Assembly: GCA_965248695.1 (NCBI GenBank)
Contig: CBDFKD010000002.1
Location: forward strand, 3,168,001-3,232,000
Direction: 5' to 3'
Length of the DNA stretch: 64,000 nt
Origin: Acidobacteriota bacterium
Lineage (GTDB): Bacteria; Acidobacteriota; UBA890; WLXD01
The position numbers and the translations under genes were made by a program. Shown here one piece after another: positions 9,601 through 12,016 of this stretch (positions are counted from its first letter, which is position 1; each line of letters begins with the position of its first letter). The notes beneath the pieces are model-generated. The model was not told the origin of the DNA and searched no databases. It saw nothing but the letters and a program-made list of their open reading frames with translations.

Positions 9601-9643
9601 AACTCATAACCCGAAGGTCGCAGGTTCAAATCCTGCCCCCGCT
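9601..9643 (+). repeat. 3' half of initiator tRNA-fMet, att-like direct repeat copy 1
   Basis: CTCATAACCCGAAGGTCGCAGGTTCAAATCCTGCCCCCGCT matches the anticodon loop to acceptor 3' strand of bacterial tRNA-fMet. The 5' half is absent. Confidence 0.85.
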
Positions 9644-9783
9644 GTGCACAGGGGCTATCCCCTCCGCCCGATACTCAATGGTTCGTACGCATTCCTTGAT
9701 TGATCCCTGAGATCGTCGGCACGACCCGGACTGACCGGGATCGAGACGACTCGCTCCGAGACCACTGGCTTCAGAGTCGACTA

Positions 9784-10599
9784 CTAGCTCGAGAGTTGGC
9801 GATCGGCGCGCCGATCTCTGTACAGCGCCGCGGCTGCGACGAGCGTGGCCGCCGCGTACACCAGGTGACCGACCCACATGCCGTGCCACTCGCCCAGAGG
9901 GTGCGGATCGTTGCGCAGGATGTCGACCGCAAAGCGGATCAGGCCGTAGCCGCCGACGAACAACCACAGCACCGTGCCATCGCGCGCTCGCCTCAGAAAC
10001 ACCCACATCAGAAGCGCGAACAGCGCCAGTCCGGCACCGGCCTCGTAGAGCTGCGTCGGGTGTATCGCTACCCCTAGCGGCGCACCCCGTGGGTAGGGGA
10101 GCAGGAGGAAGTTGTAGGTGACAGCCCACGGAAGCTGCGTTGGTGCGCCGTAGCAGCATCCTGCCGCGGAGCAGCCGATCCGTTGGATCGGGATAGCGAG
10201 GCACGCGCTCAGGGCCACGACGTCGAGGCCCTTGAGAGCCGGGATGCCGTAGAGTCGCGAGTAAAGCAGCATGGCAAGCAGGGCGACGGGCAGGGCGATC
10301 AGACTGCTGCTTCCCGTCTCCTGAAGACTCTCGACCAGCGTCGTCCACACTGCGCCGCCCTGCTGTACTTGGGCGACGAAGCGGCCGAGCCCGAAGCTCG
10401 AAGCGACGATCAGCGTGATTGGCGCCACCCAGAGGAACGCCATGTAGGCGTGGTCAGGATCGATGCCTCGTCGCCTGAAGCCGAACCGCCAGATCAGCAA
10501 TCCGACGACAACAGCGACCCCACGGGCGAAGCCGTAGGTGAAAATTGGTAACACATCGCCGCCGGGCAATGGCACCACGTACAGAATCGGCGGAAGCAT
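9784..10599 (-). CDS. Divergent prolipoprotein diacylglyceryl transferase (Lgt family) paralog
   Basis: TYG, QRIGCSAAGCCYG, PWAV, HPTQLYE and YGLIRFAVDILR motifs; about 7 TM segments. The usual GARL and GGxSFHGG motifs are absent. Confidence 0.85.
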   Translation of the reverse strand: MLPPILYVVPLPGGDVLPIFTYGFARGVAVVVGLLIWRFGFRRRGIDPDHAYMAFLWVAPITLIVASSFGLGRFVAQVQQGGAVWTTLVESLQETGSSSLIALPVALLAMLLYSRLYGIPALKGLDVVALSACLAIPIQRIGCSAAGCCYGAPTQLPWAVTYNFLLLPYPRGAPLGVAIHPTQLYEAGAGLALFALLMWVFLRRARDGTVLWLFVGGYGLIRFAVDILRNDPHPLGEWHGMWVGHLVYAAATLVAAAALYRDRRADRQLSS

Positions 10600-10735
10600 G
10601 CCGTAAATCGTATGCCGTGCGCGACCGCCGGCGAAATCGCCGGCGGCGAGGATTCTATCGGGAGCGGCGGTTCGCCCCTTGTACGAACCGAGCGACTGAG
10701 CGTAGGCTGCGGCCTTTGGGTAACAGGGAACGTGC

Positions 10736-11839
10736 ATGAGTACCGACCAGCCGGCCGACGAACACACGACGTTCTGCTTGCCGTCCAGCCGCGGCGTCCT
10801 GCGCGCCGTGGTCGTGGGCTGTTTGCTACCGCTGGTTCTTATCGGGGCGTCGACCACCGGGAGCGGCTGTTGCGGATGCTCGATCGATTCCGCATCGTTC
10901 AGTTCGCGGGGCACGGGCGCGGCCGATCCCTACTCGCTGAGCTTCCTCGGCGGCACGGCCGCGATCTCCTTTCCCGACCCGGACGGTAGCGAGATCGTCG
11001 CCAACAACGCGCGCACGCTGATCACGACCATTACTCCCGGATTGCCCGTCTTGTTCCCGGAGGGGACCCTGACCGTGACCGGCACCGCTGCCAAGGTGGC
11101 GGGGCGAGGCGGGGCGCCGCCCAAGAAACTCCTGATGGACGCGGATCACAAGGCAGCAGGCGAGTCCGCAGCCAAGGTCTTCTCCACGGTCCTGAAGATC
11201 AAGAACGGAAAGATCAAACAGACCAAGGACCAGGTCGACGGCTTCACGGCGCAGCCGGGTGAACGGGTGAGGGTGTTCCTGCGGCCCAGGGGCGGCGCCG
11301 TGACGAACGATCAGACGTACGACCTCACCTACAACTACGCCCCCACACCCGCGGGGCTGGCGGCGGCGATGCGCGAATACGGTTGGACAGCGCTGAGTGC
11401 GATCGAGACGGGGCGCCGCCTGTTGTCGACGGTGCCGGATGGCGCCGGAGCACTGCCTCTATTGTTCCGGGCCAACCGCACGATCGAGGCGAAGGCGAAG
11501 CAGGACGTAGTGAGTGTCGTGTACGGCGTTGCCTTCGAAACGGCAGCTTTCGACCTGGCGGTCGGCGCTGGCTTCTTCGGGCAGGGCGCCAGTAAGTCGT
11601 TGGCGCCCAAGCGCGTCACGGTATTCGTGGTAATACGTGACGCCGAAGGTAACACGAAGCTGTCGGTGACCTACAAGCTCGCGGTCCAGAACAACAACGT
11701 CGCTCTGGTCACCAAGGCGATCGAAGCGCTGAGCATCGAACCCGGCGACGAGCTCGATATTCAGATGAAGCTCAATGGCGGAGACGTCAACCCGGGCGAC
11801 GGCGTGTTCATTTTCCTCACCGCCACGCCGAGTCCTTGA
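10736..11839 (+). CDS. Hypothetical exported protein with GSGCCGC motif and two tandem beta-rich repeats
   Basis: 367 aa; hydrophobic N-terminal segment followed by a Cys cluster; internal duplication visible by eye. Confidence 0.75.
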   Translation: MSTDQPADEHTTFCLPSSRGVLRAVVVGCLLPLVLIGASTTGSGCCGCSIDSASFSSRGTGAADPYSLSFLGGTAAISFPDPDGSEIVANNARTLITTITPGLPVLFPEGTLTVTGTAAKVAGRGGAPPKKLLMDADHKAAGESAAKVFSTVLKIKNGKIKQTKDQVDGFTAQPGERVRVFLRPRGGAVTNDQTYDLTYNYAPTPAGLAAAMREYGWTALSAIETGRRLLSTVPDGAGALPLLFRANRTIEAKAKQDVVSVVYGVAFETAAFDLAVGAGFFGQGASKSLAPKRVTVFVVIRDAEGNTKLSVTYKLAVQNNNVALVTKAIEALSIEPGDELDIQMKLNGGDVNPGDGVFIFLTATPSP

Positions 11840-11973
11840 CGAGGACGGCTGGCAGCTCCTCTCCCTACGCGGTGCGCGTCTTCGCGGCCCGAATCTGCCT
11901 GAATCGCCTGGCATCACTCACTGCGACCAGTACTAGCAGGCTCGGCTCGCGCTGCCGTCCAGCGGGGTCCGAT

Positions 11974-12016
11974 AACTCGTAACCCGAAGGTCGTAGGTTC
12001 AAATCCTGCCCCCGCT
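11974..12016 (+). repeat. 3' half of tRNA-fMet, att-like direct repeat copy 2
   Basis: 41/43 identical to 9601-9643. Confidence 0.85.

Follow-up and report, generated by a model that had tools for sequence, protein, structure and literature searches.

A two-gene cassette in an Acidobacteriota genome pairs a divergent Lgt paralog with a predicted exported Cys-Cys protein, its candidate substrate

Two divergent genes between tRNA-fMet repeats

We analysed a 64,000-nucleotide stretch of DNA (the window; positions 3,168,001–3,232,000, forward strand, of contig CBDFKD010000002.1, assembly GCA_965248695.1) from an Acidobacteriota bacterium, in which a 2.3-kb cassette holds two genes, one for a paralog of Lgt and one for a predicted exported partner protein, and nothing else. 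Lgt transfers a diacylglyceryl group to the lipobox Cys; it is regarded as a single, broad-specificity enzyme that defines bacterial lipoproteins, and it is an antibiotic target. The initial annotation, made from the letters alone, had proposed that the cassette is a portable module in which a private Lgt-like enzyme lipidates its neighbour. Our best reading of the sequences, to which we give about an even chance, is that the two genes form an accessory module in which the Lgt paralog is dedicated to its own substrate.

The paralog, called p3 here, is encoded on the minus strand at 9784–10599 (271 amino acids; stop codon at 9784–9786), and the partner, with a signal region and two β-sandwich domains, on the plus strand at 10736–11839 (367 amino acids). 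The longest open reading frames (ORFs; 9784–10914, minus; 10736–11839, plus) overlap by 179 nt. Homologs place the Lgt start at 10599 (MLPPILYVV...) and support the partner start at 10736; the genes are therefore divergent, with 136 bp between their start codons (10600–10735). We found no sigma-70-like promoter within 9400–12300, the consensus being uninformative for this lineage.

The cassette is bounded by direct repeats of the 3′ half of a tRNA-fMet gene, both on the plus strand. Copy 1 (9601–9643) runs from the anticodon loop CTCATAA to the acceptor 3′ strand. Copy 2 (11974–12016), in which the loop is mutated to CTCGTAA, continues into about 65 nt of native tRNA-fMet downstream flank (11974–12081 in all). 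The two are 43 nt each and identical at 41 of 43 positions (95%), so the enclosure of two head-to-head genes by 43-bp repeats, as first annotated, was correct. With up to three mismatches, a 34-nt core of the repeat occurs five times in forward and never in reverse orientation in the 5.89-Mb genome, and a reversed-pattern control had no match. The sole intact gene with the core lies about 492 kb away at C2:3669783–3669857; ARAGORN calls it tRNA-Met(cat), and it is taken to be tRNA-fMet. By ARAGORN and Rfam, neither copy at the cassette lies within an intact tRNA gene: copy 2 scores 25.8 bits with the Rfam tRNA model (gathering score 29) and copy 1 does not match. A 94-nt 'tRNA-Cys(aca)' that ARAGORN places over copy 1 was rejected as spurious, being assembled from the adjacent hairpin and copy 1.

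We aligned all five repeat copies together with their flanks. Immediately 5′ of copy 1 lies a hairpin (TTATTGGGG / CCCCCAATAA; 9573–9600, plus strand), defined by its sequence and by flank comparison. It is a conserved element-end sequence that also stands directly 5′ of a tRNA-fMet fragment at C2:3675021, where it forms the left flank shared with copy 1; a 70-nt match spanning hairpin and core was found in another genome of the genus (G004:C5). The right flank of copy 2 is common to the intact tRNA-fMet locus, C2:3675021 and C2:4690490 over about 65–85 nt, which include the terminator-like stem of the tRNA itself. At C2:3675021 hairpin, core and right flank are contiguous, and that site therefore resembles an 'empty' form of the cassette site. 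From this comparison the cassette looks like an insertion into a tRNA-fMet-type attachment (att) site whose 43-nt core was duplicated, the signature of site-specific insertion, and we regard both repeats as att-type relics. No tRNA fragments flank the other three copies of the gene pair described below. The repeats, which come without an integrase, thus belong to this insertion and not to the module, contrary to the original proposal.

Conserved and altered motifs of the Lgt paralog

p3 matches the Pfam LGT profile (PF01790) at 110.4 bits against a cut-off of 24.9, over profile positions 9–236 of 240, and misses the NCBIfam equivalog cut-offs (TIGR00544, 59.7 versus 118.9 bits; NF000778, 85.7 versus 334 bits). 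In an alignment with E. coli Lgt (NC_000913) and the other Lgts of the genome, Y26, G99, D129, R143, G145, G150, G154, H196, Y235, R239, R246 and D249 are invariant; Y26, R143, G145, G154, Y235, R239 and R246 are also invariant across a separate 25-sequence alignment. Essentiality of Y26, R143, G154 and R239, along with G145, Y235 and R246, is described in the available excerpts of PMC4728403 and PMC13251419. All motifs quoted in the initial annotation are present: YG, QRIGCSAAGCCYG, HPTQLYE and Y-x3-R-x3-D-x2-R, with TGSSSLIA where GGxxFHGG would be expected, as are those quoted for the partner (STTGSGCCGC and VVGC).

Two changes distinguish the paralog clade. GGVFYGG, with Y at the position of H103, becomes GG[ST][SA]L[IV]A[LI]P; positions 103–106 read L-I-A-[LI] in p3-type proteins, F-S-A-A in p2, a second paralog of this genome, and Y-G-G-M in the housekeeping Lgt, and the E. 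coli sequence H103-G-G-L is absent. HA-x-G-R becomes [IL]P[IV]-Q-R, replacing G142 by Q (M in p2). Within the signature G142-R-x-G-N146-x3-G-E151-x2-G154, p3 keeps R143, G145, G150 and G154 and carries G142Q, N146C and E151C. The last two substitutions also occur in the housekeeping Lgt of the same genome, which reads GRVGCFAAGCCYG. GCxxxGCC is therefore typical of the lineage; the idea of a Cys signature private to the paralog had to be given up, and the motif was discarded as a paralog marker. Replacement of N146 by C and of E151 by C or D in distant Lgts is likewise described in excerpts of a recent study (mBio 2026, PMC13251419). In the portions of the literature available, the lipobox peptide is proposed to dock at the HGGL segment at the top of transmembrane segment 3 (Mao 2016, PMC4728403), protein-substrate specificity is assigned to arm-2, H103 and the head domain, and the natural replacements of H103 are given as Y, W and F alone (PMC13251419).

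An AlphaFold2 model of p3 (mean predicted local distance difference test score (pLDDT) 85.9; predicted template modelling score (pTM) 0.83) has the seven-transmembrane body and head domain of E. coli Lgt. Foldseek returned PDB 5azb as its sole match at E ≤ 0.001 (E 4.1e-6, probability 1.00, TMq 0.66), the next match having an E value of 0.38. Alignment and model together suggest an enzyme that has retained its core for lipid binding and catalysis, with a rebuilt segment where the peptide is presumably read.

The genome contains five LGT profile matches: the housekeeping gene, p3, p2 and two adjacent fragments of a fourth copy. The housekeeping lgt scores 196 bits, compared with about 111 for p3 and 119 for p2, and directly adjoins the single lspA of the genome, to which p3 is not linked. 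p3 is thus not the only lgt, and a separate housekeeping gene exists as the module proposal presupposes. p2 and p3 are 39–40% identical. The fourth copy (MPVQRLGC...; G000:C2:2814529–2814928) is of the paralog type, N-terminally truncated and frameshifted, and lies beside two insertion sequence (IS) transposase genes; no partner-family gene was detected near it.

The partner family and its Cys-Cys motif

The partner has no family match above threshold in Pfam, NCBIfam, PADLOC or PHROGs and no usable match in the ESM Atlas. Its N-terminus consists of LPSSRGVLR, a hydrophobic core and GAS-TTGSG-CCGC, so that the leader ends in STTGSGCCGC, with an earlier VVGC. Two tandem jelly-roll-like β-sandwich domains follow, at residues of about 70–205 and 240–367; an AlphaFold2 model (pLDDT 61, pTM 0.67) shows 80 disordered N-terminal residues and then the two sandwiches. 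Foldseek and VIA-align found generic similarity to jelly-rolls, carbohydrate-binding modules, surface-glycan-binding proteins or viral capsid proteins, at scores (TM ≤0.22, Z ≤7.3) within the range that the tool deems common. On the model, the partner is probably a tandem β-sandwich protein acting as a binding module.

Relatives are few. A word-based search of 5.8 billion proteins returned the partner itself and one relative at 60% identity, and a profile search of 1.84 billion representatives gave 27 matches at E ≤1e-3, 17 of them at E ≤1e-10, with about 11 full-length relatives. Matches in giant proteins were set aside, as they share a generic Ig/PKD-type repeat alone. Fused Lgt–partner proteins were absent among proteins of 666–2000 amino acids, which is weak evidence, and scans of genome and metagenome contigs with closer sub-alignments of the family yielded pattern matches and no confirmed relative.

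A positively charged n-region, a hydrophobic core and a conserved Cys near the end of the core are found in 13 of 14 family sequences, P0028 being divergent. The n-region reads LPxNRRxL and is followed by a core such as FLPAYLVLW and then by the Cys after G[ST]G or variants; a few members instead carry a canonical lipobox (VTGC, IVGC). Across 12 sequences, mean pairwise identity is 37% in this signal region and 20–26% elsewhere, so that the family is best conserved where ordinary signal peptides show the opposite pattern. Twin arginines resembling a twin-arginine translocation (Tat) signal occur in the n-region of eight of the 14 sequences (for example SRRALR, NRRLLQ and NRRPLR, seen among the N-termini of P0002, P0006–P0011, P0013 and L013:1492–1530); the window protein has SRGVLR. 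In the partner gene of the same-genus genome G003 (contig C32; L013:1492–1531), the n-region LPPRGRRALRLF lies in frame after a stop codon with no ATG, GTG or TTG upstream, which indicates either a non-standard start or a truncated leader.

In the four p3-type partners the family's lipobox Cys column holds T, A, A and V (GAS|T in the window protein), and a Cys-Cys pair stands 4–5 residues further on (TGSG-CCGC, ATRG-CCGC, TSSF-CCNC and TSGF-CCDG). The pair is kept in all four and a third Cys in three, which confirms the conservation expected of the Cys cluster. The strict lipobox [LVI][ASTVI][GAS]C directly after the core is missing, in agreement with the initial annotation: the window protein has GSG|C at Cys45 behind a six-residue polar spacer. 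Among its orthologs the corresponding sequences are SSF|C, SGF|C and TRG|C, where F at −1 or R at −2 departs from a lipobox. The VVGC noted earlier in the leader (residues 26–29) is indeed there but was ruled out as a lipobox, since homologs have G or V at the Cys position. In a loose scan of the genome, Cys-Cys occurred at the corresponding place in one of 229 lipoprotein-like N-termini, with mostly A, L or V at −3; the scan is heuristic, includes false positives and used a position window that excluded the partner itself.

Conserved linkage of the pair

We examined linkage across the order, in 26 genomes. Five Lgt genes there score 110–119 bits, and four of them make up the intact paralog clade: p2 and p3 of this genome (G000), one in G003 (contig C32) and one in G006 (contig C2). 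All four adjoin a partner-family gene, in line with the co-occurrence that the initial annotation proposed to test; the fifth gene is the different paralog of G004 described at the end. Three pairs are head-to-head and the p2 pair is tail-to-tail (convergent); the p2 neighbour is a protein of 332–351 amino acids with the leader ...LWLTATACSS, homologous to the window partner (BLASTP E 3e-8). Beyond the two genes, the four loci have no similar DNA in common and differ in their neighbours, in line with the portability first proposed. The paralog is sporadic, occurring in three of the 26 genomes, and sampling across the phylum detected the partner family in four of 401 genomes, all of this order.

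The two genes diverge in step: relative to the p3 pair, identities for G006, G003 and p2 are 62, 53 and 40% for Lgt and 41, 33 and 22% for the partner, in the same rank order. Ratios of non-synonymous to synonymous substitution rates (dN/dS) are 0.22–0.41 for Lgt and 0.45–0.60 for the partner, rough values because dS is saturated, and GC content at third codon positions (GC3) is alike in all four copies of each gene (0.79–0.83). The Lgt clade comprises six clusters at 47–80% identity, after which identity drops to ≤40%; one member comes from an Acidobacteria metagenome-assembled genome. In a maximum-likelihood tree of 25 Lgts, seven paralogs form one split against the 18 others with 99/99 support; p2 has a long branch, and the rows were picked by similarity to p3. 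P0030, the nearest Lgt at 80% identity, and P0002, the nearest partner at 60%, are each encoded on one Logan contig of 2961 bp, probably the same contig and hence a likely fifth pair.

Linkage maintained across duplicates, orientations and loci indicates that the pair stayed together through an old duplication, re-orientation and relocation, and its distribution argues that it moves between genomes as a unit. Such constant adjacency suggests that the enzyme has one dedicated substrate, though it falls short of proof.

A candidate dedicated module and its alternatives

If the paralog is dedicated to its neighbour, the partner would be exported and kept in the membrane by its unusually conserved signal region, presenting Cys-Cys 4–5 residues beyond the usual lipobox position. 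The paralog, with its phospholipid-binding and catalytic core retained and its H103-GGL peptide-binding segment rebuilt, would move diacylglycerol from phosphatidylglycerol onto the displaced Cys (C45 or C46). The product would be a tandem β-sandwich protein, similar to a binding module, lipid-anchored to the envelope. The pair would be inherited and transferred as a unit, which in this genome would have inserted at an att site of the tRNA-fMet type within the tRNA-Pro island. The analysis establishes the family and fold, the pattern of residues, the adjacency and co-divergence of the genes and the structure of the island; catalysis, the identity of the modified Cys and the role of the paralog, rather than the housekeeping Lgt, as the enzyme are inferred.

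Modelling of the enzyme with the leader, which the initial annotation had suggested, gave a pass in the weak range: co-folding of p3 with partner residues 1–80 scored 0.48 (the highest of three controls scored 0.03), with at least 77% contact agreement between runs and a partner pLDDT of at least 64. In calibration, 58 of 80 solved complexes and two of 110 mismatches passed; both of these mismatches, but just seven of the 80 solved complexes, passed with scores ≤0.60.

A more specific version of the dedicated module, that the paralog has been retuned to the signal region of one family (LPxNRRxL plus hydrophobic core) and diacylglycerylates a non-lipobox Cys-Cys outside the reach of the housekeeping Lgt, is possible, and we hold it tentatively. 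Under this version the rebuilt H103-GGL/G142 region would be a natural specificity switch.

Several observations weigh against dedication. The co-folding pass is weak, and any membrane protein may offer a surface on which a hydrophobic helix can pack. The paralog could be catalytically impaired, because H103A/N/Q/R/Y and G142A/I/V failed to complement in E. coli Lgt, according to excerpts of PMC4728403. The p2-type partner and most other family members have near-ordinary lipoboxes (ATAC, VTGC, IVGC, G[ST]GC), which by their sequences the housekeeping Lgt could plausibly handle, and GAS|T and GSG|C of the window protein also resemble signal peptidase I sites. Pairing is incomplete from the partner's side: four of the six partner-family genes in the order (E ≤1e-8) have an adjacent Lgt, and two do not, one in G003 (contig C18; P0015, beside mutY and tRNA-Glu) and one in G014 (contig C191; a partial match). 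The sample is small and related, four (perhaps five) pairs from one order that are not independent, and the adjacency count leaves out P0006–P0011, P0013, P0017, P0019 and the Lgt P0034. Of the original proposal, then, the portable module stands, as do a housekeeping lgt elsewhere in the genome and the conserved Cys-Cys motif; the private Cys signature does not, and lipidation is a prediction.

Alternatively, p3 may be a redundant general Lgt that travels as accessory cargo beside an ordinary lipoprotein, the adjacency reflecting joint transfer. We think this unlikely. An lgt with lit2 is known from a copper-resistance mobile element (PMC8689077, in the text available), the island around the cassette contains att relics and IS elements, near-canonical lipoboxes occur in many members of the partner family and the catalytic Arg and Tyr residues are retained. 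Yet the linkage has outlived an old duplication (p2 and p3 are 40% and their partners 22% identical) under differing orientations, the clade-specific changes strike precisely the proposed peptide-binding motif, the leaders of p3-type partners combine a displaced Cys with F at −1 or R at −2, and the equivalog cut-offs are missed widely (59.7 versus 118.9 for TIGR00544). Replacement of positions essential in E. coli (H103L, G142Q, and G104/G105 by I/A) would instead fit a changed chemistry or role, in which the paralog uses a different lipid donor or acceptor or serves as a receptor or insertase with no catalysis of its own. In that case the partner would be either an accessory subunit or an otherwise modified product, its cluster of up to three Cys lipidated several times or not at all. 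Lgt subgroups with divergent motifs do suggest other substrates or mechanisms, as the accessible part of PMC13251419 (mBio 2026) has it. Under purifying selection, however, R143, R239, Y26, Y235, G145 and G154 do not vary, the model can be superposed on the fold of E. coli Lgt and the cassette has no extra enzyme gene, and we consider this explanation rather improbable.

Very unlikely, in our view, is that the cassette is decaying cargo, a relic of a degraded integrative element whose pairing is a leftover with no current function. The missing integrase, the mutated att copies (CTCGTAA in copy 2), the truncated and frameshifted fourth Lgt copy beside IS elements and the G003 partner with no standard start codon upstream of its n-region would be expected of such a relic, but neither ORF is broken in this genome or in G006, dN/dS stays below 1, GC3 is similar across copies (0.79–0.83) and motifs are conserved over 47–80% identity. 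We regard as least probable that the extra Lgt serves as self-protection or as a decoy against an inhibitor of Lgt: producers of globomycin and myxovirescin, with their lspA paralogs, offer a precedent (PMC8689077, as excerpted), whereas none of the four loci has biosynthetic genes in or beside the cassette, and the constant partner gene would be left unexplained.

Relation to known systems

An Lgt dedicated to its neighbour would differ in specific ways from known Lgts. E. coli Lgt (PDB 5azb/5azc) has the same fold as p3 and shares Y26, D129, R143, G145, G150, G154, H196-P-x-Q-x-Y, Y235, R239 and R246, whereas p3 has L-I-A-L/P for H103-G-G-L, carries G142Q and is an accessory gene always found beside one particular gene. 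Cys-type Lgts of distant phyla, like the housekeeping Lgt of this genome, have GR-x-GC-xxx-GCC-Y-G, with N146C/E151C as in the paralogs; these housekeeping Cys-type enzymes keep GGVFYGG (Y at 103) and HA-x-GR (G142), and the paralog clade does not.

Second Lgt genes are known, Lgt1/Lgt2 of Streptomyces among them. Others, in the excerpts available, are Mycobacterium smegmatis MSMEG_5408, an extra lgt beside the housekeeping one (PMC13251419), and the second lgt with lit2 on a copper-resistance mobile element of Firmicutes (PMC8689077). Like p3 these are extra to a housekeeping copy, some lie on mobile elements and some have altered motif residues. In the passages available they are described as general, low-activity or stress-linked and none as an enzyme and one-substrate gene pair, and a search of the literature, as far as accessible in excerpts, found no description of an Lgt paralog dedicated to one substrate gene. 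Extra lgt genes being known already, the new aspect would be a paralog tied to a single substrate gene.

Dedicated sorting or processing pairs include sortases with LPXTG substrates, exosortases with PEP-CTERM proteins and accessory LspA paralogs. By analogy with these, a specialised paralog here stands beside a substrate with a conserved recognition signal, but the chemistry and enzyme family differ and the signal is N-terminal (LPxNRRxL, hydrophobic core and Cys). If the more specific, retuned version is true, the pair would bring a sortase-like logic of enzyme and cognate substrate to bacterial lipoproteins. Should lipidation be confirmed, a paralog tied to one substrate would imply that lipobox rules can be rewritten and that lipoprotein predictors overlook a class of substrates, and it would be a natural experiment on the parts of Lgt that read the protein substrate, for which recent mutagenesis implicates arm-2, H103 and the head domain.

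tRNA-targeted islands and cis-mobilisable elements likewise carry cargo between direct repeats of tRNA 3′ halves (43 nt here). The cassette resembles them in its element-end hairpin at the left junction, the native tRNA flank at the right junction and the 'empty' version at C2:3675021. It differs from them in having no integrase found and no intact tRNA at the site, in being nested in a tRNA-Pro island and in its length of 2.3 kb.

The surrounding island

The cassette is nested in a strain-specific island (about 9421–19145) whose integration point is an intact tRNA-Pro(TGG) gene (9346–9420, plus strand; ARAGORN; Rfam tRNA, 63.7 bits). By BLASTN, synteny with G003 breaks at 9436, just after the tRNA, and resumes at 19146. 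A direct repeat of the tRNA-Pro 3′ end at 15922–15954 (plus strand; 31 of 33 positions identical to 9389–9421) delimits an inner 6.5-kb island that holds the cassette, so that both the tRNA-fMet (41/43) and the tRNA-Pro (31/33) borders consist of tRNA-derived direct repeats. Downstream of the cassette lies a degenerate tRNA-like fragment (12162–12230, plus strand; Rfam 26.5 bits, gathering score 29), the 3′ part of which is 96% identical to the tRNA-Thr(cgt) gene region C2:5294066–5294122; we regard this fragment as a further att-type relic outside the module.

The island further contains a secreted orphan ORF of 465 amino acids with a signal-peptide-like N-terminus (12591–13988, minus strand; no match in Pfam, PADLOC or PHROGs), a Mutator/IS256-family transposase (14273–15478, plus strand; Pfam Transposase_mut, 278 bits), an ORF without a family match (15690–16562), a permease ORF (16075–17058) and a nucleoside hydrolase ORF (17995–19095). 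No integrase was found among the two cassette genes or in a scan of five island ORFs of at least 150 amino acids. Nor was one found in the 5.2-kb island beside the intact tRNA-fMet gene, which has just a Ser/Thr kinase and IS3-type transposases. Since tRNA-fMet and tRNA-Thr fragments with their flanks are dispersed over all five genomes of the genus and the scanned ORFs hold no integrase, the locus appears to be a graveyard of att relics and the cassette cargo without a recombinase of its own.

Units in which the 3′ half of tRNA-fMet runs on into about 65 nt of its downstream flank, and likewise tRNA-Thr 3′ fragments, as at 11974–12234 of the window, recur often in G001–G004; one 260-nt block occurs at 82–89% identity in three places in G004. 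Either integrative elements left many att relics, it seems, or the units are themselves mobile. A 21-nt near-repeat, TCGAGT(C/G)ACCATAGAGT(C/G)ACC, stands at 9466–9486, 46 nt after tRNA-Pro, and at 12299–12319, 69 nt after the tRNA-Thr-like fragment, with 19 of 21 positions identical. The rdgB (Ham1) gene and tRNA-Pro(TGG) are duplicated in the genome (window 8634–9436 and G000:C2:2837508–2838233, 73% nucleotide identity). The window copy is shared at 89% identity with G003 alone, the other three members of the genus having 71–73%, like the second copy, and the wider region of the window may therefore be accessory.

A different Lgt paralog in the genus

G004 carries on contig C15 an Lgt of about 109–110 bits that is a different kind of paralog, outside the p2/p3 clade. 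At about 4585–6217 (minus strand) of the locus L036 (G004:C15:1156000–1167000), an LspA paralog (Peptidase_A8, 71 bits) overlaps this Lgt paralog (109 bits; RIGCLLHGCCCG, IPSQLLEA). Downstream lie a 228-amino-acid ORF of no family with a YVGC lipobox-like site and an 871-amino-acid redoxin-domain protein, and an ABC exporter and an S8 peptidase are close by. Here, too, private enzymes of lipoprotein processing may stand beside a candidate substrate, which would make the locus a second and independent case.

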